This document shows, piece by piece, positions 1 to 60,884 of a stretch of 64,000 nucleotides of DNA. The notes beneath the pieces are model-generated. The model made no database searches. It was not told where the DNA came from and worked only from the letters and a program-made list of their open reading frames with translations. The stretch comes from Eledone cirrhosa (Eukaryota), in contig OZ024764.1 of NCBI GenBank assembly GCA_964016885.1, positions 20,336,001 through 20,400,000 of the forward strand. The letters run 5' to 3'. Every line of letters begins with the position of its first letter. Positions within the stretch are counted from its first letter, which is position 1. The translations under genes were made by a program, and so were the position numbers.

Positions 1-620
1 TGACACCATCTATCTGTCTTACTCCCCAACTAGCAAGAAGTCAATCTGTCTCATGTGCTCACCTGATTGGTAGGTTATTAGGTGGTTGGTAGGTTTCTTG
101 AAGTGTTGCAAATGGTTAGTTCACTTGCATCACAAAATACAAGAAGCCTCACTCCTTCTTCATTTCTTGAGCCATAACCATGACCACCATGTACCCCAGT
201 GTATCCATCCTGGAGCTGTCCAACATGACCATTGAAGTCCCCTGCTATTATAACTAGGTCTCTGTCATTGTGGTTATCTCTACTTATTCCTTTTCCACAT
301 TTGGAGCAGGGCCACTTTCCTGAAGGTGTCGGGGTCTTCTCTCCTATCCATTACCACTTTAGTTTTGGCTAAGTATATTCTCAGAACTTACCATTTCAAA
401 TTCTATATCTATAGTTGGTCATCTACATAGAGAAGTTTCCATAGACTGCCAGTCTTAAACCTCTCTGTTATGGTTTGGAGAACTATGATGAACAACAGTG
501 GGCTAAGAACTAAACCATGATGAACTCCTACCTGTACCTTCAATTCTTCACTAGACACACTTTACTGACATCTTCTCACAAGCCATTCTTCTACACCTAA
601 TTTCCTTAACCCTTTAGTAT
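1..620 (-). mobile_element. Decayed RTE-clade LINE fragment (endonuclease plus RT remnants), shared by all units
   Basis: Near-identical to 16200-16815, 35870-36490 and 57750-58370; the minus strand of the last copy reads IIAGDFNSHVG...GHGYGSRNEEGVRLL (APE endonuclease motif, ORF 57828-58025). Confidence 0.85.
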
Positions 621-681
621 ATAAACTGGCCATATCTGGCCAGAATTCTCCCACATCTTTCTGTTCAAACTGGCTGTAATT

Positions 682-2585
682 AAATAATAATAATAATAAT
701 GAAATTATTGTGTACAGTGCTCAGGTGCACTACATTTCATCAAAGGTGCATGTATAGTACATAGAATAATGTACAAATGTCAGGAAAATGAACAGTGCAT
801 GAGTCATGATATAATAACAATAATGAAGTATTGTGTATAGTTCCCAGGTGCACCACAACTCATCAAAAAAGTGCATGTACAGTACATAGGGCAATGCACA
901 AACATCAGTAAAATGAACAGTGCACGAGTCATGATACACACGTGTGCATGTGTATGGAAGGGGTACATCAGGTGTACTTTTGGCGTATTTCGGGAAGCTT
1001 GAGTGTCTTAAAGGATGCAGTGTCTCGGCAGCTAACAACTGACGCAGGCAGTTTGTTCCCTACTTCAGCAACTCTGAGCGTGAAAAAATGTCTACGAAAG
1101 TCATGGGAGCTGTGCTGTTTTCTGATCTTGTAGGCATGTCCACGTGTGTTAGACACATGGAGATCAAAGAGGCGCTCAGGGTTGCAATTGGCGAGATGGT
1201 TAAAAACTTTGTGGGTATTCACCAAGTCCATTGCCAGACGTCGGAGCTTCAATGAATTCATGCCCAGGGACGCAAGGCGTTCATAGTATGGTAGGTGTCT
1301 GATGGAGGGTATGTGCTTGGTTGCACGTCTCTGAACAATTTCCAGGAGGTCAATGTTCTGAGCAAGATGGGGGTTCCAGACTGATGATGCGAATTCCAAG
1401 TGTGGTCGTACCATAGCTGTATACAGTTTTAAATAGATGGCTGGAGAGCGGCTAACAAAGGTCTTGCTGAGTGATGCCAAGACACCCTCGGCCTTCTTGA
1501 CAATCTTAGAGACATGCTTTGTCCAACGCAAATCGTTGCTGACAGTAATGCCCAGGTCACGTTCACAAGAGGACTTTTTGATATCAGTGTTGTGGAGGGA
1601 GTATGTGGACGCTGGATTTTTCCTTCCAGAATGCATGGTGGTACACTTGTCCACAGCCAGCTTCAGTTGCCAGTCTGTGATCCATTGCTGCATTGTGTCC
1701 AGGTCTGATTGTAGGAAAGAGTTGTAAATTTCAGGATCAGTCCTTTGGATTTCAAGGTACAGCTTGATGTCATCTGCATATTTCAGTACCGTGGCATTCT
1801 GTAAGTTGGCATCTATGTCATTAATATATGCCACAAACAAAAGAGGACCAAGAACAGATCCCTGTGGTACACCAGATGACATCTCATATGGTGAAGAATG
1901 CTGTCCTAGAACCGTGACTACTTCTTTTCGGCTGAGAATGAAGGATTTCAACCAGTCGAAAAGATCATCCCTCACACCCATTGCAGAGAGTTTTGCCATA
2001 AGTCTTTTGTGTGGCACAGAATTAAAAGCCTTAGCAAAGTCAGCGTAAACAACATCCACCCATGAGCCGCTGTCAGTGATCCGGGTGATGTCCTCAAGGA
2101 ACTCGATAAGCTGATCACAGCAGCTGGAGTTAGGGATAAATCCAAACTGTGAGGGCCGGATGAGGCTGTGAGAGCTCCAGAAGTTCCAAAGTGTTTCTCT
2201 GACACAGGATTCCATCAGTTTGGCCATACAGCTAGTAAGACTGACTGGACGATAGTTGACAGGTGACATGCGGTTGCCCTTTTTGAACAGGGGAATGACA
2301 CTGGCAGTTTTCCACTGCTCCGGAGTAGCACCATTGTTGAGACAGTATTGAGAGAAGAAAGAAAGCTGGCGCAAAAGGAAATACCCGCCACATTTGAGAA
2401 GCAGGTATGTCACACCATCAAGACCAGGGGAGGCATAGTTGCGCTTATTCTTAAGGTGACGTCGCAACATTGTAGGTGTAAATTCCATAGTTGTTATGGA
2501 ATGAGATGGTGGAGATGGTACATTCTGGTTTTCAACAGTAAAAATACTTGCATAGCACTCAGCAACGAGTTCTGCGCATTACTTG
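682..2585 (-). mobile_element. 5'-truncated CR1/L2-group LINE insertion, private to unit 1
   Basis: Interrupts GTAATT|GGTCACT, which is contiguous at ~16878; (TTA)n-type tail at 683-700; internally duplicated 3' UTR (~713-810 vs ~830-935); contains an RT ORF. Confidence 0.88.
968..2488 (-). CDS. Reverse transcriptase of a CR1/L2-group LINE (no endonuclease; 5'-truncated)
   Basis: 506-aa uninterrupted ORF with NYRPVSLTS, QFGF, DFAKAF, GVPQGSVLGPLLF, YADD, RDLG and VRPHLEFASSVWNP; the frame stays open upstream (AELVAECYASIFT) to the insertion edge. Confidence 0.9.
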   Translation of the reverse strand: MEFTPTMLRRHLKNKRNYASPGLDGVTYLLLKCGGYFLLRQLSFFSQYCLNNGATPEQWKTASVIPLFKKGNRMSPVNYRPVSLTSCMAKLMESCVRETLWNFWSSHSLIRPSQFGFIPNSSCCDQLIEFLEDITRITDSGSWVDVVYADFAKAFNSVPHKRLMAKLSAMGVRDDLFDWLKSFILSRKEVVTVLGQHSSPYEMSSGVPQGSVLGPLLFVAYINDIDANLQNATVLKYADDIKLYLEIQRTDPEIYNSFLQSDLDTMQQWITDWQLKLAVDKCTTMHSGRKNPASTYSLHNTDIKKSSCERDLGITVSNDLRWTKHVSKIVKKAEGVLASLSKTFVSRSPAIYLKLYTAMVRPHLEFASSVWNPHLAQNIDLLEIVQRRATKHIPSIRHLPYYERLASLGMNSLKLRRLAMDLVNTHKVFNHLANCNPERLFDLHVSNTRGHAYKIRKQHSSHDFRRHFFTLRVAEVGNKLPASVVSCRDTASFKTLKLPEIRQKYT

Positions 2586-2726
2586 ATTGGTCACTTGTAC
2601 TTATGTTAAGGTATTGTTCTCAAAATAAATAACATGAAAATCTCATAGATTTGATATTATGAGAGATAAAGCATTTACTGTGAAAATATAATAGTAAATA
2701 TAGAGTAATGTGAATACTAAAGGGTT

Positions 2727-3530
2727 AATCTAATGTCACTAATAACTACTTTTATCAGTCAGTTTAATCTAATGCCACTAATAACTACTTTTATCAGTCA
2801 GTATAATTTAATGCCACTAATAACTACTTTTATCAGTCAGTATAATCTAATGCCACTAATAACTACTTTTATCAGTCAGTATAATCTAAAGTCACTAATA
2901 ACTACTTTTATCTGTCAGTATAATCTAATGTCACTAATAACTACTTTTATCAGTCAGTATAATCTAAAGTCACTAATAACTACTTTTATCTGTCAGTATA
3001 ATCTAATGTCACTAATAACTACTTTTATCAGTCAGTATAATCTAATGTCACTAATAACTACTTTTATCAGTCAGTATAATCTAATGTCACTAATAACTAC
3101 TTTTATCTGTCAGTATAATCTAATGTCACTAATAACTACTTTTATCAGTCAGTTTAATCTACTGCCACTAATAACTACTTTTATCAGTCAGTTTAATCTA
3201 AAGTCACTAATAACTACTTTTATCAGTCAGTATAATCTAATGTCACTAATAACTATTTTTATCAGTCAGTATAATCTAATGTCATTAATAACTACTTTTA
3301 TCAGTAAGTATAATCTACTGCCACTAATAACTACTTTTATCAGTCAGTTTAATCTAATGTCACTAATAACAACTTTTATCTGTCAGTTTAATCTACTGCC
3401 ACTAATAACTACTTTTATCAGTCAGTATAATCTAATGTCACTAATAACTACTTTTATCTGTCAGTTTAATCTAATCTCACTAATAACTACTTTTATCAGT
3501 CAGTATAATCTACTGCCACTAATAACTAAC
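2727..3530. repeat. 39-bp minisatellite (AATCTAATGTCACTAATAACTACTTTTATCAGTCAGTTT), about 20.5 copies
   Basis: Direct tandem repeat; 13-aa periodicity in the ORF track. Confidence 0.97.
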
Positions 3531-3654: not shown

Positions 3655-3883
3655 GTTCTTTTATTATTTCAGAATACCAGAGGAAATTGGCATTAAAGAG
3701 CACGTTACATCAGACATATCCTCAACATTAACCATTTCTAATGAAAGACACTACCCATCATTTTGAAATAATTTTGAAAACACTCAACACTTTGGACTTA
3801 TTTAGTAATATAACTAAATTTCTCAGTATTAAGCTGTGAATTATGTGAGAAACTGTGATGATTGATATCTTTTAGTAGGAGAT
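3655..3883 (+). other. Putative splice acceptor (TTCTTTTATTATTTCAG, AG 3671-3672) and 5' leader of the ZNF1 exon
   Basis: Strong T-rich acceptor conserved at the same position upstream of all four ZNF ORFs (AG at 17265, 37129, 59164). Confidence 0.65.
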
Positions 3884-5251
3884 ATGTCGAAAAATATAGT
3901 AAAATCACCATTCCACTGTGATATCTGTGGTAAATCATTCTCTCGTAGTAATCACCTAACTACTCACAGACGTATTCATACAGGAGAGAAGCCATTCCAC
4001 TGTGATATCTGTGGTAAATCATTCAGTCGCAGTAATACCTTAACTACTCACAAACGTATTCATACAGGAGAGAACCCATATCATTGTGATATCTGTGGTA
4101 AATCATTCACTTGTAGTCATCACCTAACTACTCACAAACGTATTCATACAGGAGAGAAGCCTTATAAGTGTGATATCTGTGGTAAATCATTCAGTTACAA
4201 TACTAGCGTCAGAGTTCACAAACAAATTCATACAGGAGAGAAGCCACATCACTGTGACATCTGTGGTAAATCATTCTCTTACAGTATTACCATAACTAGC
4301 CACAAACGTATTCATACAGGAGAGAAACCATATCACTGTGATATCTGTGGTAAAACATTCTCTGACAGAAGTAGCTTTGTTAAACACCAACGTATTCATA
4401 CAGGAGAGAAGCCATATCAGTGTGATATCTGTGGTAAATCATTCTCTTGTAGTAATCACCTAACTACTCACAAACGTATTCATACAGGAGAGAACCCATA
4501 TCACTGTGATATCTGTGGTAAATCATTCTCTGGCAGTAGTAGCTTAACTACTCACAAACATATTCATACAGGAGAGAAACCATATCACTGTGATATCTGT
4601 GGTAAAACGTTCTCTAAAAACAATTACCTAACTACTCACAAACGTATTCATACAGGGGAGAAGCCATATCAGTGTGATATCTGTGGTAAATCATTCAGTC
4701 AGAGTAGTACCTTAACTACTCACAAATGTATTCATACAGGAGAGAACCCATATCACTGTGATATCTGTGGTAAATCATTCTCTGGCAGTAGTAGCTTCAT
4801 TAAACACAAACGCATTCATACAGGAGAAGAGGCATATCAACGTGATATCTGTGGTAAATCATTTTCTCTTAGTAGTCACCTAACTACTCACAAACGTATT
4901 CATACGGGAGAGAAGCCATATCACTGTGACATCTGTGGTAAATCATTCAGTCATAGTAGTACCTTAACTACTCACAAACGTACTCATACAGGGGAGAAGC
5001 CATATCATTGTGACATCTGTGGTAAATCATTTGCTGACAGAAGTAGCTTAGCTACCCACAAACGTACTCATACAGGAGAGAAGCCATATCACTGTGACAT
5101 CTGTGGTAAATCATTCACTGATAGAAGTTGCTTAACTACTCACAAACGTACTCATACAGGAGAGAAGCCATATCACTGTGACATCTGTGATAAATCATTC
5201 CCTCAAAGTGGTAACTTCACCAAGCATGTGCGTCTTCATACAAAAGTTTAG
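3884..5251 (+). CDS. Tandem C2H2 zinc-finger protein ZNF1, 16 fingers (finger 12 has first Cys->Arg)
   Basis: 455 aa = 10-aa leader + 16 CxxC-12-HxxxH units, mostly TGEKP/TGENP linkers. Confidence 0.95.
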   Translation: MSKNIVKSPFHCDICGKSFSRSNHLTTHRRIHTGEKPFHCDICGKSFSRSNTLTTHKRIHTGENPYHCDICGKSFTCSHHLTTHKRIHTGEKPYKCDICGKSFSYNTSVRVHKQIHTGEKPHHCDICGKSFSYSITITSHKRIHTGEKPYHCDICGKTFSDRSSFVKHQRIHTGEKPYQCDICGKSFSCSNHLTTHKRIHTGENPYHCDICGKSFSGSSSLTTHKHIHTGEKPYHCDICGKTFSKNNYLTTHKRIHTGEKPYQCDICGKSFSQSSTLTTHKCIHTGENPYHCDICGKSFSGSSSFIKHKRIHTGEEAYQRDICGKSFSLSSHLTTHKRIHTGEKPYHCDICGKSFSHSSTLTTHKRTHTGEKPYHCDICGKSFADRSSLATHKRTHTGEKPYHCDICGKSFTDRSCLTTHKRTHTGEKPYHCDICDKSFPQSGNFTKHVRLHTKV

Positions 5252-5520
5252 CTGTATCAATATCAAACTCATTACATCATACTACAACAACAACAACAAT
5301 TGTGTAGATCCATCATCCTTGCTAAAACTGGTGTTAACCTTGTAGGTTTTACCTATGACAGGGATCATAAACACCAGGTTTCCATTTTTGAAGTAGTGTT
5401 TGAAGATTTTGTGTAAATTAAAGTTTTTCACATTAAACTTTCATTTATTATACTTTAACAGGTAAGATATATATTTGTATTTTTAGTAAAGGTTGGGAAC
5501 TTCTGTAATTTAAACCTGCC

Positions 5521-5545
5521 AATAAAATGAAAACTTTTGTTGTTG
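5521..5545 (+). terminator. Putative polyadenylation signal of ZNF1
   Basis: AATAAA 270 nt after the stop, followed by TTTTGTTGTTG; conserved at 19707 and 39491. Confidence 0.6.
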
Positions 5546-5679
5546 CTAGTCTGACATTGATATTAATTCTATTGTCCTGTACATTGTCTCAAAAATCACA
5601 GATTAAACAGATTTTAACAATAACAACAGAAATCAATAACTTGTAAGCCTAATATCTAGCTTCCATTTTAACTATTTGA

Positions 5680-6300
5680 TATTGTTGTTCCCCTCCTGTC
5701 TCTTCAGGTGTTTTAGATTTCAACTTCTATCTACAGTACTATTCCATCACCAAGGCAACATTCATCTGGCTGGCAGCTTACATCAACTCCAGATCTCATC
5801 AGTGGTTCACAACAGGCTGTCTGAAAGAAACTTCCAGATATCTTCTATGTCATAGCTATCAATCTCCTCCTCCTTATCATATGTATCATGTAGAACATCT
5901 CTGAATTTATATTTAAAGGGGGATCTTTTACCATCCCTACCCTTTTCTCTAGTTGTCTTGTACCAGTCTCACAGTCCCTCTATATCTTATATTTAACAGG
6001 GAGATCTTTTACTATCCCTACCCTTTTCTGTAGGTTGTCTTGTACCTCTCTTAAAGTCCCGGTAGATCTTATATTTAACAGGGAGATCTTTTACTTTCCA
6101 ACCCTTCTATCTCCAGATAGTCTTGTATCTGTCAGTCCCTCTAGATCTTACACCTAGTATCTAGTCTATGTTGAGTGGTACGTCCTTCTCCAGTAAAGGA
6201 GTTAATATTCCCAACCATCTGTCTATCCTGTTTTCTGATGAGAATGAAGTCAATCTAGTTTATCTCTTCACCTGATTGAAGTAACTAGATCAAGTAACTA
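5680..6300 (-). mobile_element. Old RTE LINE relic containing an ~82-bp tandem repeat (5907-6150, about 3 copies)
   Basis: Minus strand gives IDFILIRKQDR...TTQHRL and WNSTVD remnants, matching the RTE ORF at 42504-43664. Confidence 0.7.
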
Positions 6301-6440: not shown

Positions 6441-6885
6441 AATATCACATGACCTTGACAGAAAAGAGTCTTTTAAAGACAACAGAAAGATGTTACATAC
6501 AAGTGATATAAACTTGTTTAGTCTGTGGTGAATTATGGTGAAATATTTCTTCTGAATTGAGATAAATAACAACATTTTCCTTTTTCACTGTCTGGAATAT
6601 TTACAAGATGATTTTACATTCTGATTAAACTTTGGATATTTACAAAGGCGTTTTCAAAATATTTGGATATTGACAAAGATGACATTTGGTAAAATTATGA
6701 ACAATAGAAATATTTACATCAACATAGGAATATTTTCCAAAAGAGATGGGAAAATCATTATACCACTGTAATATTTGTGGTAAAGTATTCTCTCTTCTTC
6801 ATATGTACAACATCTAACTAAACACTTTAACTAACAAACTATTGTGCTATAGAATTGACAAACTTGAAGAATGTTTAATAAATGT
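6441..6885 (+). pseudogene. Relic ZNF terminal exon (acceptor, leader, half finger MGKSLYHCNICGKVFS, stop, AATAAA)
   Basis: Acceptor TTTCTCTACTATTTCAG and upstream intron are homologous to those at 3590-3672; ATG at 6746. Confidence 0.65.
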
Positions 6886-6936
6886 TACAGATTTCTCCAA
6901 ACTGTCGTTTACTAACTTTAATTTGAAACTATATTA

Positions 6937-7889: not shown

Positions 7890-8390
7890 GTAATCAGAAG
7901 AAGGGAGGTAGGCATAAAAGCCAAACTTGCTGTCTTCAATTAGGTTTTTGTGCCAACCCTTACCTATGGTCACATATCTTGGGTAATGACCAAAAGAATA
8001 TGATTGCAAATACAAATGGCAGATATGGGATTCCTCTGAAGGGTCTTTGAAGGAACTTTTCTCAATAAAGTGCATAGCTCTGAGATCAGAGAGTCACTCC
8101 AGGTGGAGCTGTTACCTCTCCGAATTGAGAGATTACAGCTGCAATACTATGGCCATGTGGTTAGAATGTCTGAGGAAAGAATCACCGGATAGATTTTACA
8201 GGCTAAACTAACCGGCAGGAGACCCAGGGGTAGACCTGAGCAAGATGGTCACATAACATCCATGAGCTTGGCTGGTCTCTGGGAGATCCAGCCACATAAG
8301 TTGGAGTGGGTTGCTTCTGACAGGACCTGTTGGAGGGAGTGTTTGAGGACTCTGCCCCCAAGACCCTCTCTGGAATAAGTGGGTTAATAA
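7890..8390 (+). mobile_element. Decayed C-terminus of an Expander/Rex3-like RTE LINE
   Basis: Reads FVPTLTYGH.SWVMT...IERLQLQYYGHVVRM...GRRPRGRP; paralogs at ~47380-47875 and, partially, 22215-22370. Confidence 0.7.
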
Positions 8391-8686
8391 GAAGGGGTTG
8401 AGGTTACATAATCAACATCAGATTTCCCTGCTAGCAAGGGTTTAATGAGTCTACTTCAACCAAGTAAGTACTGAAGTGAGGCTACTGATCTCCCAGACAG
8501 ACCAAGGATCTGAGACTTATTTACATAAGGTCTCATTTGCTACTGAGTGCACAGAAAAGGTTGTCATGTCTTTGTCATGATTGAAGGGTTCTCCGACACT
8601 ATTGTCGGGCAAGCTTTCTATGGCCAGATGTCCTTCACATGACCAACCACATTACAGCCTGTGTTGGGTGTGTTTATCATGTAGGT

Positions 8687-10731
8687 GAGACGTAACGAAC
8701 TGAGGGTTACCCAAGGACCACATAGGTCACATGTGTTGTCTGAGGGTTGCACAGTGCAACTAATTATGTACACAACAACTAATTAAAGTCATTTAATAAA
8801 TTATATTGCAGAAAGATTTGTTACTTAAATTTAGAAACATACAATGTACATACAAATGTTTTAGCAGCATTCATGAATACAAAGTAATGAAGTAGTTTGA
8901 CAAAAAACTAAAATTTAACATGTCAACATATACTTGCAGATTGTAACATCAACAAATACATTGTACACAAATAACAACAGTTGAAAACTGAACATTTATT
9001 TGCTACTATTCAACCATTTTTAGTGTTTTGTCCTGAGGCTTGACACTTCTTTCTGTTGACAATGTTTGGTATATCTGGCTGAAATGTCTACAGTTCCAAC
9101 TTTAATCAGAAATGACAAGTGTTGATCTGTCAGCCTTGTTCTCTGAGAAGTTTTTGTTAAGCAAAGTACAGACTCAGTATGGGCAGTGATTTTCAGCTCT
9201 TTGCACATAAGAAAATGAATTAAATTTTCATCTGACAATGGAGACTTCCATAAGCTAAGTCTTCTAATGAAGAACTTGATGTCATCATACAACTGAGTGA
9301 TGGGTTTGTTTTTACCTTGTAATTTCAAATTAAGATCAGTTAATTGTGCAGTAATATCCACAAATAAAGCCAGATGTTGGAGCCAACTTTCATCTTTTAT
9401 TTCACCTGTGTTTTGACCTTTCATCTCCAAAAACATAATTATTTCAACAAATAGAATCTTTTCAGCACTTTGTGACATGTCAACCAGCAGACTTCTGTGT
9501 AGAATGGAACTTCGGTGAACTGATTATCCATATCTTCCAACAACTGGCTGAACTGACGGTGGTTGAGAGCACAACCTCTGATTTAGTTCACTGTCTTTGT
9601 GACCAAGCTAAGCACATGATGCAATTTTAAAATCTTTGAACATAAATTTTGCTGATGAATAATACAGTGAAAATGTGCAAATGATGAATCTAGATATGAG
9701 TTTTCTATTTTTGTTTGTAACTTGGCAGCAACACCATTATGTCTACCAACCATATTTGCAGCACTGTCAGTAGATAAACATGCAAGTTTACTCAGATCAA
9801 AACCATGCAGACCCTGCTTGGCCTTCTCAAAGATGTCCTGGCTTGTTATAGTGTCATGCATGGGGACCAGTTCAATCAGTTCTTCATAAATATTAAATTC
9901 ACTGTCACAGGCGCTGATGAAGAATGCAAGCTGTACTATTCCAGTGATGTCAACAGTCTCATCAATAGCAATAGAAACATGTTCAAACCTTGATGATACA
10001 GCCTTTAACTGTTGTTTCAGATCACCTGACATTTCATTAATCTGTTCAGCAACAGTGTTCCTGGTTAATGAAATGTCTTTGAATAACTCTGCTTTCTCTG
10101 GACAATTTCAGCTGTTTTTACAAGACATTGCTTTACAAAATCTCCTTCACTCTAAGATTTCCCACTCATGGCAATCATTCGACTGAGTTCATAGCTTGCA
10201 GTAACGGAAGTGACATTCTCTTCCTGAATTAACATAAAAGAGGTCTATTGCTGTGTTAAGTTAGACTTCAATTCCTTGAGTCTTGAAACACACGTTGGGG
10301 CTTCATATTTATCCTAAGATCGAGGGTTTGTTTCATAATGTCTTTTTAAATTGTACTCTTTTGGCCTGGCGATGTAGTTGTTGCAAATTAAACAGTGTAT
10401 CTTTCTGTTCACCATTGGGCAAAAATACTGTAATTCCCACTTTTCTTGAAACACTTGCCCTTCTTCATTCAATTTCCTTTTTCTCTTAGCTGGAGGAGCA
10501 CTAACCATTTCAAAAACAAAATCTTTTGAAATTTTGAAAGAAAGTTTTCTGTTAATGAGCTGCACGTGATTAATGGAAGTTAAAAGTAGTTGACAAAAAT
10601 TGCACAAAAAAAATAATTGTATCGAAAAATGTTTAAATTTTATATTAGGAAAATGAAACATGCTCGCACTGTAAAAACCTTTGTGTGGGCCGCAGGTTTG
10701 CTTACAAAGGGCCGCATGTTTGACATGTCTG
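8687..10731 (-). mobile_element. Decayed hAT (Buster/Charlie/SPIN; GTF2IRD2-like) DNA transposon
   Basis: Fragmented ORFs with FQEKWELQYF, CLIC, KEYNLKRHYET, SIAIDETVDIT, STDSAANMVG, HCIIHQQNLC, LNLKLQG; TIR GTTTGACATGTCTG at right, degenerate TIR at left; 8-bp TSD ATGTAGGT at 8679-8686 and 10732-10739 (nnnTAnnn). Confidence 0.88.
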
Positions 10732-12549: not shown

Positions 12550-12659
12550 GCATGCGCAGTGGTGCAGTTGTCGACTTCCTGTCCACGTGTTAGTCTTCCT
12601 ACAACATCATTTAGACAACATTTCTGTAAATACTAAACACCTGAGACTATAATGTAAGT
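12550..12659 (+). promoter_or_regulatory. Putative promoter and non-coding first exon of ZNF2
   Basis: GCATGCGCA (NRF1-like, 12550), ACTTCCTG (ETS-like, 12574), CACGTG (E-box, 12584) and donor AAT|GTAAGT (12654); near-identical at 28642-28751 and 53000-53109. Confidence 0.6.
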
Positions 12660-15550: not shown

Positions 15551-15604
15551 GAATTTACAGTGTGATAATAGGCCACACCTCACACCCTAGGGGTTAACTA
15601 CACA

Positions 15605-16815: not shown

Positions 16816-17021
16816 TTAGTATTTAAACTGGCCATATCTGGCCAGAATTGTCCCACATCTTTCTGTTCAAACTGGCCGTAATTGGTCACTTATACTTATG
16901 TTAAGGTATTGTTCTCAAAATAAGTAACATCAAATTCTCGTAGATTTGATATTATGTGAGATAAAGCATTTACTGTGAAAATATAATAGTAAATATAGAG
17001 TAATGTGAATACTAAAGGGTT

Positions 17022-17122: not shown

Positions 17123-17477
17123 CCTATGTTAGTCAGCACATTCTTGACCAAAGAAGGCCTTAGTATTTATTACAGTCCATTTATCAATATAGAAATATTA
17201 TATGAAATTTGTACTGATGTATTACAAGTTTCTGAGTATCTTATAAATGTTCTTTTATTATTTCAGAATACCAGAGGACATTGGCATTAAAGAGCACGTT
17301 ACATCAGACATATCCTCAATATTAACCATTTCTAATGAAAGACACTACCCATCATTTTCAAATAATTTTGAAAAAACTCAACACTTTGAAGGGATTTAGT
17401 AATATAACTAAATTTCTCAGTATTAAGCTGTGAATTATGTGAGAAACTGAGGTGATTGATATCTTTTAGTAGGAGAT

Positions 17478-19433
17478 ATGTCGAAAAATATAGTAAAATC
17501 ACCATTCCACTGTGATGTCTGTGGTAAATCATTCTCTAAAAATACTAAATTAACTAGGCACAAACTAAGTCACACAGAAGAGAAGCCATATCACTGTGAT
17601 ATATGTGGTAAATCATTCTCTAAAAATACTAAATTAACTAGACACAAACTAAGTCATACAGAAGAGAAGCCATATCACTGTGATATCTGTGGTAAATCAT
17701 TCTCTAAAAATACTAAATTAACTAGACACAAAGTAAGTCATACAGAAGAGAAGCCATATCACTGTGATATCTGTGGTAAATCATTCTCTAAAAATACTAA
17801 ATTAACTAGACATAAACTAAGTCATACAGAAGAGAAGCCATATCACTGTGATATCTGTGGTAAATCATTCTCTAAAAATACTAAATTAACTAGACACAAA
17901 CTAAGTCATACAGAAGAGAAGCCATATCACTGTGATATCTGTGGTAAATCATTCTCTAAAAATACTAAATTAACTAGACACAAACTAAGTCATACAGAAG
18001 AGAAGCCATATCACTGTGATATCCGTGGTAAATCATTCTCTAAAAATACTAAATTAACTAGACATAAACTAAGTCATACAGAAGAGAAGCCATATCACTG
18101 TGATATCTGTGGTAAATCATTCTCTAAAAATACTAAATTAACTAGACATAAACTAAGTCATACAGAAGAGAAGCCATATCACTGTGATATCTGTGGTATA
18201 TCATTCTCTAAAAATACTAAATTAACTAGACACAAACTAAGTCATACAGAAGAGAAGCCATATCACTGTGATATCTGTGGTAAATCATTCTCTAAAAATA
18301 CTAAATTAACTAGACACAAACTAAGTCATACAGAAGAGAAGCCATATCACTGTGATATCCGTGGTAAATCATTCTCTAAAAATACTAAATTAACTAGACA
18401 TAAACTAAGTCATACAGAAGAGAAGCCATATCACTGTGATATCTGTGGTAAATCATTCTCTAAAAATACTAAATTAACTAGACATAAACTAAGTCATACA
18501 GAAGAGAAGCCATATCACTGTGATATCTGTGGTAAATCATTCTCTAAAAATACTAAATTAACTAGACACAAACTAAATCATACAGAAGAGAAGCCATATC
18601 ACTGTGATATCCGTGATAAATCATTCTCTAAAAATAATAAATTAACTAGGCACAACTCTATTCATACAGGAGAGAAGCCACACCACTGTGACATCTGTGA
18701 TAAATCATTTACTCACAGTAGTACCTTAACTAGACACAAACGTATTCATACAGGAGAGAAGCCATATCACTGTGACATCTGTGATAAATCGTTTTCTGGC
18801 CGTAGTACCTTGACTATTCACCAACGTATTCATACAGGAGAGAGGCCATATCGCTGTGACATCTGTCATAAATCATTCTCTCAAAGTAGTACTTTCACTA
18901 ATCACCAACGTATTCATTCAGGAGAGAGGCCATATCACTGTGATATCTGTGGTAAATCATTCTCTGTTAATAATTACCTAATTGTTCATAAACGTATTCA
19001 TACAGGAGAGAAGAGATATCATTGTGATATCTGTGGTAAATCATTCACTCACAGTGGTACCTTAACTTATCACAAACGTGTTCATACAGGAGAGAAACCA
19101 TATCACTGTGATATCTGTGATAAATCATTCAGTCACAGTGGCACCTTAACTACTCACAAACGTACTCATACAGGAGAGAAGCCATATCACTGTGACGTAT
19201 GTAGTAAATCATTCTCTGTTAGTAATAGCCTAACTACTCACAAACGTATTCATACAGGAGAGAAACCATATCAGTGTGATATCTGTGATAAATCATTCTC
19301 TGATACTAGTAACTTAACTATTCACAAACGTACTCATACAGGTGAGAAACCATATCACTGTGACATCTGTGGTAAATCATTCTCGAAAAGTAGTAACTTA
19401 ACTCAGCATGTGCATATTCATACAGAAGTTTAG
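17478..19433 (+). CDS. Tandem C2H2 zinc-finger protein ZNF2, 23 fingers (1-14 near-identical; 7, 11 and 14 have second Cys->Arg)
   Basis: 651 aa = 10 + 22x28 + 25; thirteen KNTKLTR helices with TEEKP linkers, one KNNKLTR, then nine diverse fingers. Confidence 0.95.
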   Translation: MSKNIVKSPFHCDVCGKSFSKNTKLTRHKLSHTEEKPYHCDICGKSFSKNTKLTRHKLSHTEEKPYHCDICGKSFSKNTKLTRHKVSHTEEKPYHCDICGKSFSKNTKLTRHKLSHTEEKPYHCDICGKSFSKNTKLTRHKLSHTEEKPYHCDICGKSFSKNTKLTRHKLSHTEEKPYHCDIRGKSFSKNTKLTRHKLSHTEEKPYHCDICGKSFSKNTKLTRHKLSHTEEKPYHCDICGISFSKNTKLTRHKLSHTEEKPYHCDICGKSFSKNTKLTRHKLSHTEEKPYHCDIRGKSFSKNTKLTRHKLSHTEEKPYHCDICGKSFSKNTKLTRHKLSHTEEKPYHCDICGKSFSKNTKLTRHKLNHTEEKPYHCDIRDKSFSKNNKLTRHNSIHTGEKPHHCDICDKSFTHSSTLTRHKRIHTGEKPYHCDICDKSFSGRSTLTIHQRIHTGERPYRCDICHKSFSQSSTFTNHQRIHSGERPYHCDICGKSFSVNNYLIVHKRIHTGEKRYHCDICGKSFTHSGTLTYHKRVHTGEKPYHCDICDKSFSHSGTLTTHKRTHTGEKPYHCDVCSKSFSVSNSLTTHKRIHTGEKPYQCDICDKSFSDTSNLTIHKRTHTGEKPYHCDICGKSFSKSSNLTQHVHIHTEV

Positions 19434-28641: not shown

Positions 28642-28751
28642 GCATGCGCAGTGGTGCAGTTGTCGACTTCCTGTCCACGTGTTAGTCTTCCTACAACATC
28701 ATTTAGACAACATTTCTGTAAATACTAAACACCTAAGACTATAATGTAAGT
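28642..28751 (+). promoter_or_regulatory. Putative promoter and non-coding first exon of ZNF3
   Basis: Same NRF1/ETS/E-box cluster; donor GT at 28746. Confidence 0.6.
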
Positions 28752-36988: not shown

Positions 36989-37946
36989 CTATGTTAGGCA
37001 GCACATTCTTCACCAAGGAAGGCCTTAGTATTTATTACAGTCCATTTATCAATATAGAAATATTATATGAAATTTGTACTGATGTATTACAAGTTTCTCA
37101 GTATCTTATAATGTTCTTTTATTATTTCAGAATACCAGAGGACATTGGCATTAAAGAGCACGTTACATCAGACATATCCTCAACATTAACCATTTCTAAT
37201 GAAAGACACTACCCATCATTTTCAAATAATTTTGAAAACACTCAACACTTTGAAGGGATTTAGTAATATAACTAAAGTTCTCAGTATTAAGCTGCTATTT
37301 GGAACATAACTTTGCAGAATTTCATGAAGTTATAATGGAAAGTTTTTAGATACATATAAAGACTGATATGAAAAGGATAAAACACTTTTATATAAGTTGT
37401 TTCATCAACACTATTATTTTAAGACTAAAGGAAGCTGTTAGACATAACAGATACAACCTTGTTTATATAAATCTATGGGAGAAATACTGTGAAATATTTC
37501 TTGTAAACTCAATACCACTTCTATTCTTTGCTGTCTGGAATATGTAGAAGATACAAAATAAAGCTGAAGAAATTCACAAATGATTTTGTAAGATCTTCAT
37601 ATATTGACAAAGTTGATAGTAGATGGAACTACAGGAGTAGAAATATTTCCATTATTACAGGAATAACTAATCAAATGAAGACCAGAAAAATTAGATTCTT
37701 CACTGTCTGGAATATGTACAAGAGGATTTTATATGTATATTAAACTTGAAGAGATCTACAAAACAGTTTGTATCATCTTTAAATATAAAGAAAGACCAAA
37801 GTTGATGTAAATATATCTGGAGGATTATGTTTTAAGAATAATATTATAAACATAAAGAAGAAAAATATCCATATATTGACAGGAGAAAAATATTAAAACT
37901 GAATTAAGTGAGAAACTGAGGTGATTGATATCTTTTAGTAGGAGAT

Positions 37947-39221
37947 ATGTCGAAAAATATAGTAAAATCACCATTCCACTGTGATGTCTGTGGTAAATCA
38001 TTCTCTAAAAATAATAAATTAACTAGACACAAACTAAGTCATACAGAAGAGAAGATATATCACTGTGATATCTGTGGTAAATCATTCTCTAAAAATAATA
38101 AATTAACTAGACACAAACGTATTCATACAGGAGAGAAACTATATCAGTGTGATATCTGTGATAAGTCATTTTCTCAAACTTATACCTTAAATATTCATAA
38201 GTGTATTGGTACAGGAGAGGAGCCATATCACTGTGGTATATGTAGTAAATCATTCTCTTACAGAAGTAGCTTTGTTAAACACCAACGTATTCATACAGGA
38301 GAGAAACCATATCACTGTGATATCTGTAGTAAATCATTCTCTGACAGAAGTAGGTTTGTTAAACACCAACGTATTCATACAGGAGAGAAGCCATATCACT
38401 GTGATATCTGTGATAAATCATTCTCTCAGAGTAATCACTTAACTACTCACAAACGTATTCATACAGGAGAGAAACCATATCACTGTGATATCTGTGGTAA
38501 AACGTTCTCTAAAAATAATAACCTAACTACTCACAAACGTATTCATACAGGAGAGAACCCATATCATTGTGATATCTGTGGTAAATCATTCACTTGTAGT
38601 CATCACCTAACTACTCACAAACGTATTCATACAGGAGAGAAGCCATCTCAATGTGATATCTGTGATAAATCATTCAGTGACAGTAGTAGCTTCAGAGTTC
38701 ACAAACAAATTCATACAGGAGAGAAGCCACATCACTTTGACATCTGTGGTAAATCATTCAGTCACAATAATACCTTAACTAAACACCATCGTATTCATAC
38801 AGAAGAGCAGCCATATCACTGTGATATCTGTGGTAAATCATTCTCTCAGAGTAATCACCTAACTACTCACAAACGTATTCATACAGGAGTGAAACCATAT
38901 CACTGTGATATCTGTGGTAAAACGTTCTCTAAAAATAATAACCTAACTACTCACAAACGTATTCATACAGGAGAGAAACCATATCACTGTGATAAAACGT
39001 TCTCTAAAAACAATAACCTAACTACTCACAAACGTATTCATACAGGAGAGAACCCATATCATTGTGATATCTGTGGTAAATCATTCACTTGTAGTCATCA
39101 CCTAACTACTCACAAACGTATTCATACAGGAGAAAAGCCATATCACTGTGACATCTGTGGTAAATCATTCTCTTGTAGTGGTAACTTAACCAAGCATGTG
39201 CGTATTCATACAGAAGTTTAG
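37947..39221 (+). CDS. Tandem C2H2 zinc-finger protein ZNF3, 15 fingers (3, 10 and 13 defective)
   Basis: 424 aa; finger 3 second His->Gly, finger 10 Cys->Phe, finger 13 in-frame 9-bp deletion (HCDKTF). Confidence 0.93.
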   Translation: MSKNIVKSPFHCDVCGKSFSKNNKLTRHKLSHTEEKIYHCDICGKSFSKNNKLTRHKRIHTGEKLYQCDICDKSFSQTYTLNIHKCIGTGEEPYHCGICSKSFSYRSSFVKHQRIHTGEKPYHCDICSKSFSDRSRFVKHQRIHTGEKPYHCDICDKSFSQSNHLTTHKRIHTGEKPYHCDICGKTFSKNNNLTTHKRIHTGENPYHCDICGKSFTCSHHLTTHKRIHTGEKPSQCDICDKSFSDSSSFRVHKQIHTGEKPHHFDICGKSFSHNNTLTKHHRIHTEEQPYHCDICGKSFSQSNHLTTHKRIHTGVKPYHCDICGKTFSKNNNLTTHKRIHTGEKPYHCDKTFSKNNNLTTHKRIHTGENPYHCDICGKSFTCSHHLTTHKRIHTGEKPYHCDICGKSFSCSGNLTKHVRIHTEV

Positions 39222-52999: not shown

Positions 53000-53109
53000 G
53001 CATGCGCAGTGGTGCAGTTGTCGACTTCCTGTCCACGTGTTAGTCTTCCTACAACAACATTTAGAAGACATTTCTGTAAATACTAAACACCTGAGACTAT
53101 AATGTAAGT
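53000..53109 (+). promoter_or_regulatory. Putative promoter and non-coding first exon of ZNF4
   Basis: Same NRF1/ETS/E-box cluster; donor GT at 53104. Confidence 0.6.
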
Positions 53110-53609: not shown

Positions 53610-53921
53610 CTTTGAGGCAAGCCAACACACTGGCAGCATTACTAAGGTGTTGAAATAACCAGGTACCCTCACGGGTATCACCTGGTACCTCAGTAAGGTG
53701 AGGCTAAGGTGCTGAAATAACCAGGTACCCTCACGGGTATCACCTAACACCTCGGTAAGGTGAGGCTAAGGATCTGAAATAACCAGGTACACTCACGGGT
53801 ATCACCTGACACCTCGATAAGGTGAGGCTAAGGGGCTGAAATAACCAGGTACCCTCACGGGTATCACCTGACACCTTGGTAAGGTGAGTCTAAGGGGCTG
53901 AAATAACCAGGTACCCTCACG
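53610..53921 (-). repeat. 62-bp CRE-derived minisatellite, about 4.5 copies
   Basis: Same unit as 15648-15810. Confidence 0.88.
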
Positions 53922-54680
53922 GAAACGACTAGATTTGTAGAAAAAGTAGGGTAAAAGTATACGAAGAGATGTAGTTTCACAGATCTACTCACACCTCACG
54001 TTGGGTGGGAAATAATTATTTTTCTGAGATTTTTTTCTAGACCCCTTTTCAATATTTTCTCTGAACCCCTTAGATACTTGCAATAGACGTTTTATTCCCC
54101 AGTATTAGGGTTAGGGTTTCCATTTTCAGGAAGAAAAGTCGATTGCAAACATCTAAGCGGTCGAGAAATAAAATTAAGGAAAGATAATTATTTCCCAGCC
54201 AACTGGAGAAGTGTGTAGCTCTTCTAAATTCTGATAATCCTGTCTCCCACTTCTTTATCTACAAATCTAGTCGTTTCCTGCTACTTTGAAGGCCCTATTT
54301 ATTGATAACACCACTTGTAAATCTTTGTCAACTTTTCATACGTAAATTGTGAATCAGTTATTTTAAAACAAACTATCAAAGAAGTGATCTCACAGTAACT
54401 GTGTTTGATTCAATCAACTTATTCCCCCCAAACATTGTCGACCTTGTGTCTAAATCAGAAACTATTATAAGATCTTAAATCAACCTCGTAAAGATGAAGG
54501 GCAAAGCTAACCTCGGCGGGATTTCAACCCTTTATGTTATGAGTTCAAATCCCACCAAAGTTAACTTTGTCTTTCATTCTAAAGGAGTGGATAAATTAAA
54601 GTTCCAGTAATCTAATGGGGTCTGAGATATTAAGGTTTGAGTAGATTCTATCTTTTTGTGTGTTTGTATTTATAATCTTA

Positions 54681-54811: not shown

Positions 54812-54859
<48 letters not shown>

Positions 54860-55752: not shown

Positions 55753-58375
55753 TCTCTCAACTCATCTATGCTTGGTCGTTGATGCACATTGACATTGCAC
55801 ATCCAACGGAGCATACTTGCTTCATTTCTCTCCAGCCATCGCATATCCTCCACAGTTGCTGTCCATGTCTCACTACCGTACAGCATCACACATCTCACGC
55901 AGGCATCACCAGCCATTCGTTCTTAGGGAGAAACCCTTCTTTGTCAACAGAGCAAGCAGCTCCCTAAACGTCTCCCAACCCGTCCTTATTCTATATACTA
56001 TGGCCTCTGAGCACCCTCCTCCCATGCTAATCTGATCACCTAGGTATCGGAAGCTATCAACCACCTCTGTAGATCCTTCCTGCACTTGAAAAATGTGTCT
56101 ATCAATGCGACTTCTACTGTCAAATTTCCCTGTACCTCTACTGCATATGTAGTTTTCCCTACCTGTTAGTTTGCCTGCTATCCCACTACATTTCTTGTGT
56201 ACCCAAAATCTGCATTGTGTACATTATAGAATTTATGCCAGTTCCTTTTCTACATATCGAACAAGGCCATTTCCCTGATGGAATGACAGTTTTGTCCTCT
56301 TTTCTACTCAACACATTTGTCTTAGCTAGGTTCACTCTCAGTCCTCTTGCTTCCAACTGCTGTTTCCATAGCCAGAATTTATGCTCTAGCTCCGCTACTG
56401 ATTCTGCTATAAGAACCACATCGTCAGCCTAGAGAAGTTCCCATGGGCAGCCAGTCTTAAACTCCTCTTTTATGGCTTGGAGGCCTATAATAAACAAGGG
56501 CGGGCTGAGGACCGACCCTGATGTACTCCTACTTGTATCTGGAATTCCTTATTAAACTCCATTCCTACCCTCACTTTACTGACACCACCTCTGTACATAG
56601 CTTGCATTGTCCTCACAAACTATTCCTCTACACCTAGTTTCCTTAGGGACCACCAGATGACAGATTGGGGTACTCTATCAAAGGCCTTTTCTAGGTGAAC
56701 AAAAGCTAAGTATAGTGGTTTATTCTTCTCTAAGAACCTCTCTAGTAGTTGTCTCACTAAGAAGAGGGGATCTGTTTGACCCTTTCTCTAAGTTGCGCTA
56801 GTATTCTTTCTGTCACTTTCATAACCTGATCCATCAGTTTTATACCCCTATAATTACTCCCCTCCAGAACATCCTCTTTACCTTTACCTCAATTTATGAG
56901 AATACTGCTGCACCAGTCTTTGGGTATGACACCACCATATATAGCTTGATTAATGATGCATGCAACCAGTTTACTTCCTACATCCCCTGATGCCTTCAGC
57001 ATCTCAGCAACTATCCCCAACAGTCCAGCAGACCTCCATTTTTCCTTTCCTTAATTACTCTTGGACCCTATAGTCGTCAATCTCAATAGCTGGTCCTTCT
57101 GTCGGGTCTACCTTCAGTAGACCCGACATTTCCAGGCCTCCCTTTTTTGATCATTCGTGACACTAAGTACATCGGCATCATCCCGGACACATTTATCTCC
57201 AACAACATCCTGATTTGCACTGACACACTGCCTTGCAATGTGGAACACTGCACGCCTCTGATCTTCCCGTCGCAGAACATTGGCAAACCTCCTACTCTCG
57301 GCCTCCCTGCGTGCTAAGTAGACCTGACATCTAGCTTCTCTCTTAGTGGCTGTGTATCGGTCTCTACCCCTACAATTTTTCCAAACATTCCATGCTAGTC
57401 TTTTGTCTCTAATGGCTCTATCTACCGTGCTGTTCCACCACCAGGTCACTCTCTGTCTGGTTGGAGCTCTGCTCCAGCCACAAGTTTTATGAGTAACCTG
57501 CAGTAAGTTGTCACGTAAGAAATTCCAGTTATCATCTATGTCATACGACGCTAAAACGTCTTCTTTTTCATCATACACATCTTGAAGGGCTTGCCTAAAT
57601 TTATATTTTAGTGAAAGGTCTTTTAGTTTCTAGACCTTCCTTTTTCACACCTTCTTGTATGTCTCTCTTTGTCTCTTGCTTACTGAGATGTCACTAACGA
57701 CTAACCTATGTTGGGGGGTTACATTGTTCCCTGTGGTATGCCTTAGTATTTGACACCATCTATCTGTCTTACTCCCTAACTAGCAAGAAGTCAATCTGTC
57801 TCATGTGCTCACCTGATTGGTAGGTTATTAGGTGGTTGGTAGGTTTCTTAAAGTGTTGCAAATGGTTAGTTCACTTGCATCACAAAATACAAGAAGCCTC
57901 ACTCCTTCTTCATTTCTTGAGCCATAACCATGACCTCCATGTACCCCAGTGTATCCATCCTGGAGCTGTCCAACATGACTATTGAAGTCCCCTGCTATTA
58001 TAACTAGATCTCTGTCCTCTGTCATTGTGGTTATCTCTACTTATTCCTTTTCTACATATGGAGCAGGGCCACTTTCCTGAAGGGGTCAGGGTCTTCTCTC
58101 CTATCCATTACCACTTTAGTTTTGGCTAAGTATATTCTCAGAACTTACCATTTCAAATTCTATATCTATAGCTGGTCATCTACATAGAGAAGTTTCCATA
58201 GACAGCCAGTCTTAAACCTCTCTGTTATGGCTTGGAGAACTATGATGAAAAACAGTGGGCTAAGAACTAAACCATGATGAACTCCTACCTGTACATTCAA
58301 TTCCTCACTAAACACACTTTACTGACAGCTTCTCACAAGCCATTCTTCTACACCTAATTTCCTTAACCCTTTAGT
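55753..58375 (-). mobile_element. Decayed long RTE LINE in the ZNF4 intron
   Basis: Paralog of 33835-36490. Confidence 0.88.
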
Positions 58376-58453
58376 ATATAAACTGGCCAGAGATAAAGCA
58401 TTTACTGTGAAAATATAATAGTAAATATAGAGTAATGTGAATACTAAAGGGTT

Positions 58454-59022
58454 AATCTAATGTCACTAATAACTACTTTTATCAGTCAGTATAATATAAT
58501 GTCACTAATAACTACTTTTATCAGTCAGTATAATATAATGTCACTAATAACTACTTTTATCAGTCAGTTTAATCTAATGTCACTAATAACTACTTTTATC
58601 AGTCAGTTTAATCTAATGTCACTAATAACTACTTTTATCAGTCAGTTTAATCTAATGTCACTAATAACTACTTTTATCAGTCAGTTTAATCTAATGTCAC
58701 TAATAACTACTTTTATCAGTCAGTTTAATCTAATGTCACTAATAATTACTTTTATCAGTCAGTTTAATCTAATGTCACTAATAACTACTTTTATCAGTCA
58801 GTTTAATCTAATGTCACTAATAACTACTTTTATCAGTCAGTTTAATCTAATGTCACTAATAACTACTTTTATCAGTCAGTTTAATCTAATGTCACTAATA
58901 ACTACTTTTATCAGTCAGTTTAATCTAATGTCACTAATAACTACTTTTATCAGTCAGTTTAATCTAATCTCACTAATAACTACTTTTATCAGTCAGTTTA
59001 ATCTACTGCCACTAATAACTAA
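58454..59022. repeat. 39-bp minisatellite, about 14.5 copies
   Basis: Same unit as 2727-3530. Confidence 0.96.
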
Positions 59023-59981
59023 CCTATGTTAGGCAGCACATTCTTCACTAAGGAAGGCCTTAGTATTTATTACAGTCCATTTATCAATATAGAAATATTA
59101 TATGAAATTTGTACTGATGTATTACAAGTTTCTGAGTATCTTATAATGTTCTTTTATTATTTCAGAATACCAGATGACATTGGCATTAAAGAGCACGTTA
59201 CATCAGACATATCCTCAACATTAACCATTTCCAATGAAAGACACTACCCATCATTTTCAAATAATTTTGAAAACACTCCACACTTTGAAGGGATTTAGTA
59301 ATATAACTAAATTTCTCAGTATTAAGCTGCTATTTGGAACATAACTTTGCACAATTTCATGAAGTTATAATGGAAAGTTTTTAGATAAATATAAAGACTG
59401 ATATGAAAAGGATAAAACACTTTTATATCAGTTGTTTCATCAACACCATTTTTTAAAGACTAAAGGAAGCTGTTATACAGAACAGATACAACCTTGTTTA
59501 TATAAATCTATGGGAGAAATACTGGGAAATATTTCTTGTAAACTCAATAACACTTCTATTCTTTGCTGTCTGGAATATGTAGAAGATACAAAATAAAGCT
59601 GAAGAAATTTACACATGATTTTGTAAGATCTTCATATATTGATAAAGATGATTGTAGATGGAACTACAGGAGTAGAAATATTTCCATTATTACAGGAATA
59701 ACTAATCAAATGAAGACCAGAAAAATTAGATTCTTCACTGTCTGGAATATGTACAAGATGATTTTATATGTATATTAAACTTGAAGAGATCTACAAAACA
59801 GTTTGTATCATCTTTAAATATAAAGAAAGACCAAAGTTGATGGAAATATATCTGGAGGAATATGTTTTAGGAATAATATTATAAACATAAAGAAGAAAAA
59901 TATCCATATATTGACAGGAGAAAAATATTAAAACTGAATTATGTGAGAAACTGAGGTAATTGATATCTTTTAGTAGGAGAT

Positions 59982-60884
59982 ATGTCGAAAAATATAGTAA
60001 AATCACCATTCCACTGTGATATCTGTGGTAAATCATTCAATAAACGTAGTACCTTAACTACTCACAAAGTTATACATACAGGAGACAAGCCATATCACTG
60101 TGATATCTGTGGTAAAACATTCCCTCGAAGTGATGCGTTAACTAGCCACAAACGTACCCATACAGGAGAGAAGCCATATCACTGTGATATCTGTGGTAAA
60201 TCATTCTCTCAAAGTAGTACCTTAACTGGACACAAACGTACCCATACAAGAGACAAGCCATATCACTGTGATATCTGTGGTATATCATTCTCTGTAAGTG
60301 GTACCTTAACTACCCACAAACGAATACATACAGGAGACAAGCCATATCACTGTGATATCTGTGGTAGAACATTCCCTCAAAGTGATGCATTAACTAGCCA
60401 CAAACATACCCATACAGGAGACAAGCCATATCACTGTGATATCTGTGGTAAATCATTCTCTCAAAGTAGTACCTTAACTAAACACAAACGTACCCATACA
60501 AGAGACAAGCCATATCACTGTGATATCTGTGGTATATCATTCTCTGTAAGTGGTACCTTAACTAAACACAAACGTATACATACAGGAGACAAGCCATATC
60601 ACTGTGATATCTGTGGTAAATCATTCTCTCTAAGTAGTACCTTAACTAGCCACAAACTTACCCATACAGGAGACAAGCCATACCACTGTGATATCTGTGG
60701 TAAATCATTCTCTCAAAGTAGTAACTTAACTCGCCACAAACGTACCCATATAGGAGAGAAGCCATATCACTGTGATATCTGTGGTATATCATTCTCTGGG
60801 AAAAGTAGCCTAACTAGTCACAACCATTTACATACAGGTGACAAGCCATACCACTGTGATCATCATCATCATCATCAGGTTTAG
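59982..60884 (+). CDS. Tandem C2H2 zinc-finger protein ZNF4, 10 intact fingers, truncated by an RTE insertion
   Basis: 300 aa = 10 + 10x28 + [10 protein letters not shown]; mostly TGDKP/TRDKP linkers; fingers 2-4 duplicated as 5-7. Confidence 0.88.

Follow-up and report, generated by a model that had tools for sequence, protein, structure and literature searches.

The window considered here is a stretch of 64,000 nucleotides (nt) from Eledone cirrhosa (GenBank assembly GCA_964016885.1, contig OZ024764.1, positions 20,336,001 to 20,400,000, forward strand). It carries a tandem cluster of four C2H2 zinc-finger genes, all on the same strand, whose surroundings are near copies of one another and whose finger arrays are not. 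The start codons lie at 3884, 17478, 37947, and 59982, that is, 13,594, 20,469, and 22,035 bp apart. These distances agree with the 13.6, 20.5, and 22.0 kb on which an earlier note, made from the sequence alone, had based a tandem unit of four. Each open reading frame (ORF) opens with MSKNIVKSP and runs on into complete fingers, 16, 23, 15, and 10 in genes 1 to 4. These 64 fingers have the form CX2CX12HX3H and are joined in tandem by TGEKP-type linkers, as in poly-C2H2 (Krüppel-type) proteins; in gene 1 the Pfam family zf-H2C2_2 matches with E=2.8e-129. Tandem C2H2 arrays read DNA through helix positions -1, 2, 3, and 6 of each finger, here called contact positions. The parts of the genes are the following (CDS, coding sequence; o/e, observed over expected).

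3673..3883, plus strand: exon 2 leader of gene 1, short form with a 605-nt deletion; acceptor homologous to the spliced one
3884..5251, plus strand: gene 1 CDS, 9 residues and 16 C2H2 fingers, Cys>Arg in finger 12 (ORF, Pfam)
12550..12653, plus strand: CpG-rich, promoter-like block together with the non-coding exon 1 of gene 2; GT donor at 12654 (CpG o/e, splice joint)
17267..17477, plus strand: exon 2 leader of gene 2, short form, two upstream ATGs (splice joint)
17478..19433, plus strand: gene 2 CDS, 23 fingers, Cys>Arg in fingers 7, 11, and 14 (finger count)
28642..28745, plus strand: predicted promoter-like block and exon 1 copy of gene 3 (homology)
37131..37946, plus strand: exon 2 leader of gene 3, long form with a decayed finger-like stretch (homology)
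37947..39221, plus strand: gene 3 CDS, 15 fingers, three without one zinc ligand (finger count)
53000..53103, plus strand: predicted promoter-like block and exon 1 copy of gene 4 (homology)
59166..59981, plus strand: exon 2 leader of gene 4, long form (homology)
59982..60884, plus strand: gene 4 CDS, 10 complete fingers, ending within an insertion (finger count, alignment)

When the arrays and tandem repeats are masked, BLAST of the window against itself shows that the surroundings of the genes are repeated, mostly at 90-97% identity. In seven aligned flank blocks, 499 of 18,012 pooled pairwise sites differ (2.8%), with 29 insertions or deletions (indels), and the history of the flanks is essentially star-like. 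The units form a mosaic with unit-specific insertions, and genes 1 and 2 share the 605-nt leader deletion. The 3' untranslated region (UTR) is common to genes 1-3 only. The high similarity of flanks, leader, and N-terminus claimed in the earlier note is thus borne out, as is its restriction of the shared 3' UTR to these three genes.

The arrays are quite different. Among 60 full-length fingers there are 42 distinct signatures at the contact positions, and just two of the 42 are common to different genes. A finger and its best match in another gene are a median of 6-11 of 84 nt apart (7-13%), compared with 2.8% in the flanks. Between such best matches, the proportion of synonymous differences (pS) outside the contact codons is 0.08-0.14, against 0.028 in the flanks; pairwise pS among 49 fingers is 0.19-0.23. 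The fingers are much older than the duplicated unit. Therefore, a comparison of finger n with finger n sets non-orthologous units side by side. That coding arrays outpace the adjacent junk had been called unusual. It is instead what turnover of old fingers as tandem repeats leads one to expect, and in duplicated mouse KRAB zinc-finger protein (KZFP) genes, too, the array is the least conserved segment (PMC5363842; Kauzlaric 2017).

Direct traces of exchange can be found within the arrays. Genes 1 and 3 have three tracts in common, of 121 bp and 115 bp without a mismatch and of 218 bp with 10 mismatches. They stand at shifted positions and end inside fingers; near-identical tracts, likewise out of register, are shared by genes 2 and 3. 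Genes 3 and 4 contain two- and three-finger duplications; the duplications within genes extend over 169 bp with 3 mismatches and 295 bp with 10. In gene 2, fingers 1-13 are one finger amplified, copies 2-13 differing from copy 5 by 0-2 nt. All four gametes are present at 393 of 820 informative site pairs, similarly at every distance, and the finger tree has a consistency index of 0.44. The earlier view that the fingers differ almost completely and are rapidly replaced therefore holds for the signatures and needs correction for the DNA beneath them: according to the shared tracts, fingers were re-sorted, and not all replaced.

The amplified finger of gene 2 (17505-18680) has the linker TEEKP in place of TGEKP and has lost a cysteine in 3 of 14 copies. 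Identical fingers in a row would recognize a simple repeat or, given the role of the linker, may bind weakly.

Repeat turnover is general in this unit. A non-coding 39-bp intronic repeat numbers from 2 to 20 units by gene, and 42 of its 43 units are within 0-2 nt of a unit in another gene, because they started alike. The copy number of the non-coding minisatellites thus changes as much as that of the fingers. A neutral simulation was run with the gene 1 fingers as ancestor and the mutation rate of the flanks, in 25 replicates per setting. With 4-8 conversion tracts per finger it gave best-match medians of 6.7-9.0, compared with 6-9 observed; without conversion the median was 1.6. In this model, which includes neither copy-number change nor selection, conversion would be sufficient, and nothing beyond sufficiency follows. 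The divergence of the arrays needs no faster mutation.

Selection at the contact positions was assessed in several ways. On 49 of the 64 fingers, a set without three terminal fingers, a shortened one, and 11 of the near-identical gene 2 copies, the proportion of nonsynonymous differences (pN) at contact codons over all-codon pS is 2.3-2.8 (bootstrap 2.5-3.2), and 0.54-0.65 at non-contact codons. Among close finger pairs (37 spanning-tree edges of at most 8 nt) the contact ratio is 2.2 (p=7e-5) and the non-contact ratio 0.59. A codon model gives a contact omega of 1.88 or 2.57, depending on the tree, against 0.56. After correction for saturation, 8 private alleles fall at contact codons where 1.0 would be expected, an enrichment over non-contact codons (p=0.0008). 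Synonymous third positions vary no more within the helix than in the framework (157 of 3150 versus 1983 of 18,686 pairs), and so the helix is no mutation hotspot. In genes 1-3, 3.7-5.2 stops and frameshifts would be expected, and there are none (P=0.006-0.026, assuming that 70% of indels shift the frame).

Flank divergence against dN/dS at the contact positions had been fixed beforehand as a check. Beside flanks 2.8% apart, the contact estimates range from 1.7 to 2.8 with recombination left out of the model; the excess of amino-acid change expected there is significant in most tests and not in the two strictest. Ranked against 202 fetched arrays, a control biased by similarity and mostly vertebrate, the share of diversity that falls on contact sites reaches the 68th-79th percentile. 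This share is ordinary for poly-zinc-finger genes and short of the PRDM9-like extreme. We read the diversifying selection as real but partly historical, with constraint relaxed on single fingers.

The exon structure can be followed upstream of the arrays. The promoter-like blocks have a CpG o/e of 1.2, compared with 0.38 window-wide, and a splice donor directly follows each; they contain motifs that we take to be NRF1-, ETS-, and E-box-like. Matching acceptors lie at 3673, 17267, 37131, and 59166; exon 1 of gene 1 would lie upstream of the window start. Four public sequencing runs (X1, X4, X7, and X13) were aligned to 12300-17500, X7 and X13 having no coverage of exon 1 and being uninformative there. 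Among the joints listed, one contig of run X4 (depth 170) joins 12653 to 17267 as GT..AG at the predicted sites. The joint does not appear in the large DNA-like run X1, which has the same organism label as X4.

Exon 1 has no usable ATG, and in all four ORFs an in-frame stop stands 7 codons 5' of the start. Because a non-coding exon 1 appears to be spliced to the finger exon behind this stop, the main product is likely 9 residues followed by fingers. No KRAB, PR/SET, SSXRD, or FiNZ-type N-terminal domain was found in frame upstream of the arrays, and neither KRAB nor another effector is among the best 25 of 36 Pfam families for gene 1, all of them finger-type or incidental. An effector-less protein, as already proposed in the earlier note, is well supported, although short of proven. 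A minor isoform is possible in which an unseen coding exon is joined to the AG that immediately precedes the ATG.

The leaders differ in length, those of genes 3 and 4 being 605 nt longer than those of genes 1 and 2. Upstream ATGs number 3 in the leader of gene 1 (exon 2 part only) and 2 in that of gene 2. The long leader of genes 3 and 4 (37417-37813 and 59452-59848) contains, in two copies, a segment with 65-74% similarity to a decayed finger exon in the 3' flank. In that exon the frame continues past five stops to reach a methionine and a finger, and the splice acceptors are homologous as well. The leader segment may represent an N-terminal coding region since lost, or an old 5' UTR. A search for protein relatives of such a relic gave none (one candidate without a match, and no usable Atlas match). 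Nor was there a tblastn match among 355 fetched proteins, a weak negative with close paralogs absent from the set. This exon and the other elements that recur with the unit are listed here.

2726..3528, no strand assigned: 39-bp intronic minisatellite, 20.6 copies (2.6, 7.6, and 14.6 copies at 17020, 36690, and 58452)
5252..5881, plus strand: 3' region of genes 1-3, 2.5-3.0% apart (also 19434-20067 and 39222-39851)
5907..6127, no strand assigned: 82-bp minisatellite, 2.7 copies (also 20093-20559 and 39852-40510)
6441..6800, plus strand: decayed zinc-finger exon within the unit, 65-74% like the long leader (also 20852-21211 and 40801-41160)
8241..10352, minus strand: dead DNA-transposon-like block copied with the unit, 2.3-2.5% apart (also 22218-24315 and 47721-49834)

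The dead transposon-like block has a weak, below-cutoff match to the Spin-doc zinc-finger family of Pfam in a neighbouring frame. A 62-bp intronic minisatellite with donor-like motifs occurs at 15648-15812, 29633-29920, and 53642-53922 (2.7, 4.6, and 4.5 copies), and it has a partial inverse relative upstream of the promoter.

Gene 4 stands apart from the others. It is cut in finger 11 by an insertion of about 300 bp with a 6-bp target duplication, of which a 93% copy lies at 45557-45847; beyond it, the tail is frameshifted and the 3' region is not homologous to that of the other genes. The conserved frame attributed to all four copies is thus found in genes 1-3 and not in gene 4.

60866..61156, no strand assigned: insertion of about 300 bp, presumably SINE-like (SINE, short interspersed element), with a (CAT)n end and 6-bp target duplication
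61157..61489, plus strand: four fingers of gene 4 severed from the rest, frame shifted by 2 bp (sequence comparison)

Variants found in gene 4 alone recur across 4-8 of its 10 fingers. None of the 10 comes within 9 nt of a finger in genes 1-3, and gene 4 has no long tract in common with another gene. To judge from these comparisons, it is likely a chimera of this unit's 5' part and the array of an older paralog. Further downstream, 61776-62299 is a decayed finger-derived tandem repeat (78-bp period, 5.2 copies, 95%), in which finger units were amplified after loss of the frame. The sole Rfam match, an unrelated tRNA-like stretch on the minus strand at 62785-62842 (37.4 bits), is likely the head of a SINE.

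Close relatives did not turn up in protein searches, where long vertebrate arrays dominate the listings. The best listed whole-protein identity was about 57% among the best 120 of 5176 matches; a second search had one octopus protein among the best 120 of 3606, and a third gave at most 56% among the best 150 of 199,720. None of the four window proteins is itself in the collection searched. The last fingers and 3' UTR of gene 2 were found in part in 20 of 24 listed runs and by half in none, with a best share of 0.38, which is uninformative on polymorphism. In run X1, near-identical contigs on the unit (12660-12917 and 17157-17373) have a depth of about 2,000, compared with 5-11 on diverged transposon pieces. 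This contrast is a hint of many unit copies rather than a measured copy number. The same run contains the insertion at 13114-15559 in both filled and empty form.

The explanation that we consider probable is as follows. The four genes are tandem copies of a likely two-exon, effector-free gene. Once they had been duplicated, unequal crossing-over and short conversion among older, diverse 84-bp fingers likely remade their arrays, and selection likely keeps the contact residues varied. Promoter, intron, finger exon, and dead flanking elements were copied together as a unit of 14-22 kb, whose flanks are 2.8% apart. The fingers of the array were by then far more diverged among themselves, with pS near 0.2. 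In this model, out-of-register exchange, to which the shared tracts point, would have moved, duplicated, deleted, and spliced fingers, giving new signatures without faster point mutation. Gene 4 probably, and part of gene 2 perhaps, took an array from a more distant paralog. Selection appears to have favoured variety at the contact positions and constrained the framework, at least historically; the statistical support for this step is weakened by recombination. The products would occupy their sites directly or recruit partners through the fingers.

Several observations weigh against this explanation. The splice is seen in one contig with 30 nt on its short side, from a run not recorded as RNA, and could come from any paralog. 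The predicted spliced leaders of genes 3 and 4 contain 13 and 17 upstream ATGs. The 20 closest finger pairs (at most 5 nt) give a contact ratio of 1.7 (p=0.16), and the omega of 1.88, obtained on the all-site tree, has a 2dlnL of 4.3 with 2 degrees of freedom (p about 0.12, chi-square). Uncorrected, 8 of 52 private alleles fall at contact codons, which is no enrichment (p=0.47). Non-contact private alleles are also in excess, 44 versus 25.6 (1.7-fold), so that some of the signal comes from diversity that is old or imported and not from new selection. Conversion violates the single-tree assumption of these selection tests (PMC5519329). Finally, 7 of the 64 fingers lack a zinc ligand, representing roughly 5-6 events where about 5 would be expected without selection.

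These points give some room to a model of relaxed selection, in which amplified arrays churn neutrally, contact variety is left over from an older functional family, and the copies drift toward pseudogenes. The near-neutral number of zinc-ligand losses fits such a model, as do the spread of a broken finger inside the gene 2 expansion, the truncation of gene 4, the decayed finger exons at 6441, 20852, 40801, and 61776-62299, the many upstream ATGs of genes 3 and 4, and the youngest finger pairs without significant contact-site excess. It is nonetheless unlikely: three frames are open where 3.7-5.2 lesions would be expected, non-contact pN/pS is 0.51 even in the closest pairs (p=0.046), and a spliced form is present. 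Another model keeps the flanks young and has whole arrays or long tracts exchanged with distant family members elsewhere, so that the arrays compared here are non-orthologous. Gene 4, with its own variants, its distance from genes 1-3, and its foreign 3' end, suggests such import. So do the best-match non-contact pS, well above that of the flanks, and the lack of a long tract common to genes 1 and 2. Genes 1-3, however, keep homologous first-finger starts and last fingers, and conversion within arrays alone reproduces the medians. Import is thus distinctly improbable as the general explanation; it likely contributes beside the exchange among older fingers favoured above.

An arms race, with fast adaptive point substitution replacing fingers in response to the young transposons of this locus, would account for the contact-site excess. 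Unit-specific long interspersed elements (LINEs) younger than the duplication are present, one of them with an open reverse-transcriptase (RT) frame, and finger motifs are predicted to be enriched in octopus transposons at family level (PMC10547256). We still regard an arms race as very improbable. Uncorrected private alleles per finger lineage are 0.9-1.6, compared with 1.2 by the flank clock. New signatures mostly reuse common alleles, with 9 private contact residues in four genes; the contact diversity share is not extreme among the 202 arrays, and nothing links these fingers to the local elements. That the structure itself is an assembly artefact, with repeats misjoined or inflated, is hardly credible, judged on the window sequence and on the contigs over 12300-17500. 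The copies are evenly about 3% apart and have private insertions, variants within the gene 2 expansion come back in phase at a distance of four units, and DNA contigs carry one unit insertion both filled and empty.

Turnover of older fingers within a young unit has counterparts in other lineages. In octopods, C2H2 expansions consist of clustered, tandem, lineage-specific poly-C2H2 genes (PMC12513265, PMC9068888, PMC9795677; see also PMC13218726), and the present genes are likewise clustered, tandem, and poly-C2H2. The one octopus protein fetched, P0205 of Octopus bimaculoides, ranks first of 356 proteins for the window's finger-start motif, with 2 copies, and lends weak support to the octopod origin that the finger framework suggests. 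As far as consulted, those accounts treat gene counts, trees, and expression rather than exon structure or exchange between fingers. In the literature consulted, which includes few subscription papers, no cephalopod cluster is studied at the level of single fingers or described in its exon structure; supplements may treat domain content.

In young mouse KRAB zinc-finger clusters (PMC5363842; bioRxiv 2025.02.26.640358), gene and flanking elements are segmentally duplicated and the array is least conserved. Signatures there are duplicated singly or blockwise, signature arrays are mostly unique, and pseudogenes are interspersed. The present cluster shows the same dynamics, namely a recent segmental duplication with flanks (2.8%) much closer than best-matching fingers (7-13%). 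The mouse genes differ in having a KRAB exon and targets shown by chromatin immunoprecipitation, whereas here exon 1 is non-coding and the reader role is a prediction.

Conversion and duplication also turn over the 84-bp units of PRDM9 (PMC5519329), where diversity is likewise concentrated at the contact residues. Unlike PRDM9, the present system is multi-gene and has no KRAB/SSXRD/SET region. Its share of diversity at positions -1, 3, and 6 is 0.25-0.32; of four fetched proteins named PRDM9 or PRDM9-like, three have 0.38-0.47 and the fourth has 0.20. Against the 202 arrays, the present system lacks an extreme contact-site share. The zebrafish FiNZ-ZNFs and poly-zinc-finger expansions (PMC10547256, PMC2604467) are KRAB-independent and show positive selection at contact residues, together with gain and loss of fingers among paralogs (PMC2604467). 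FiNZ genes, however, have an N-terminal domain and shown transposon repression (PMC10547256). Here, 9 residues behind an in-frame stop precede the first finger and the one upstream exon seen is non-coding, so that the N-terminal domains of KRAB-ZFP, PRDM9, and FiNZ proteins all lack a counterpart.

The products are likely sequence-specific DNA readers that would act without an effector of their own, as far as their sequences can tell. Repeats or transposons as targets are the leading guess, though a minority one, and may be regarded as possible. Unit-private LINE insertions indicate that elements were active after the duplication. A 5'-truncated LINE with a 536-aa open RT frame at 682-2586 is confined to unit 1 and is therefore younger than the duplication. 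In unit 3 only, 42483-45462 is a near full-length LINE with endonuclease and RT (and a PHD-like part) in two overlapping frames; decayed fragments related to it lie at 32085-33163, 33849-35606, and 55767-57014. The unit-specific insertion at 13114-15559 has a decayed frame without a Pfam match, which presumably resembles a LINE with a restriction-like endonuclease. Just upstream of the gene 4 promoter, an insertion at 52260-52888, recognized by eye, has (TA/TG)n tracts enclosed by long terminal inverted repeats. Transposon density in mouse clusters can result from duplication itself (bioRxiv 2025.02.26.640358). For octopus fingers, transposon binding has been predicted from motifs, with enrichment at family level (PMC10547256; Wells 2023; reviewed in PMC12988792).

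A bolder scenario, which is quite unlikely, would have effector-free genes multiply from this unit in a very recent burst to high copy number. Finger conversion would then serve as a PRDM9-style, family-wide diversifier. Each individual would have its own repertoire of repeat readers, by which young transposons are silenced or stabilised via a finger-recruited corepressor. The ancestral N-terminus would have been shed, leaving its ruin in the leader.

The cluster is a clear new example of a process already known from mammals and fish, and likely a cephalopod case of it at base level. It offers a base-level view of poly-zinc-finger paralogs reaching new predicted specificities within about 3% neutral divergence, and the non-coding minisatellites of the same unit provide a built-in neutral control. 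The common promoter, leader, and 3' UTR are handles for counting and knocking down the whole subfamily. Finally, a two-exon, effector-free gene sharpens the question of how invertebrate zinc-finger expansions would act on transposons without KRAB.

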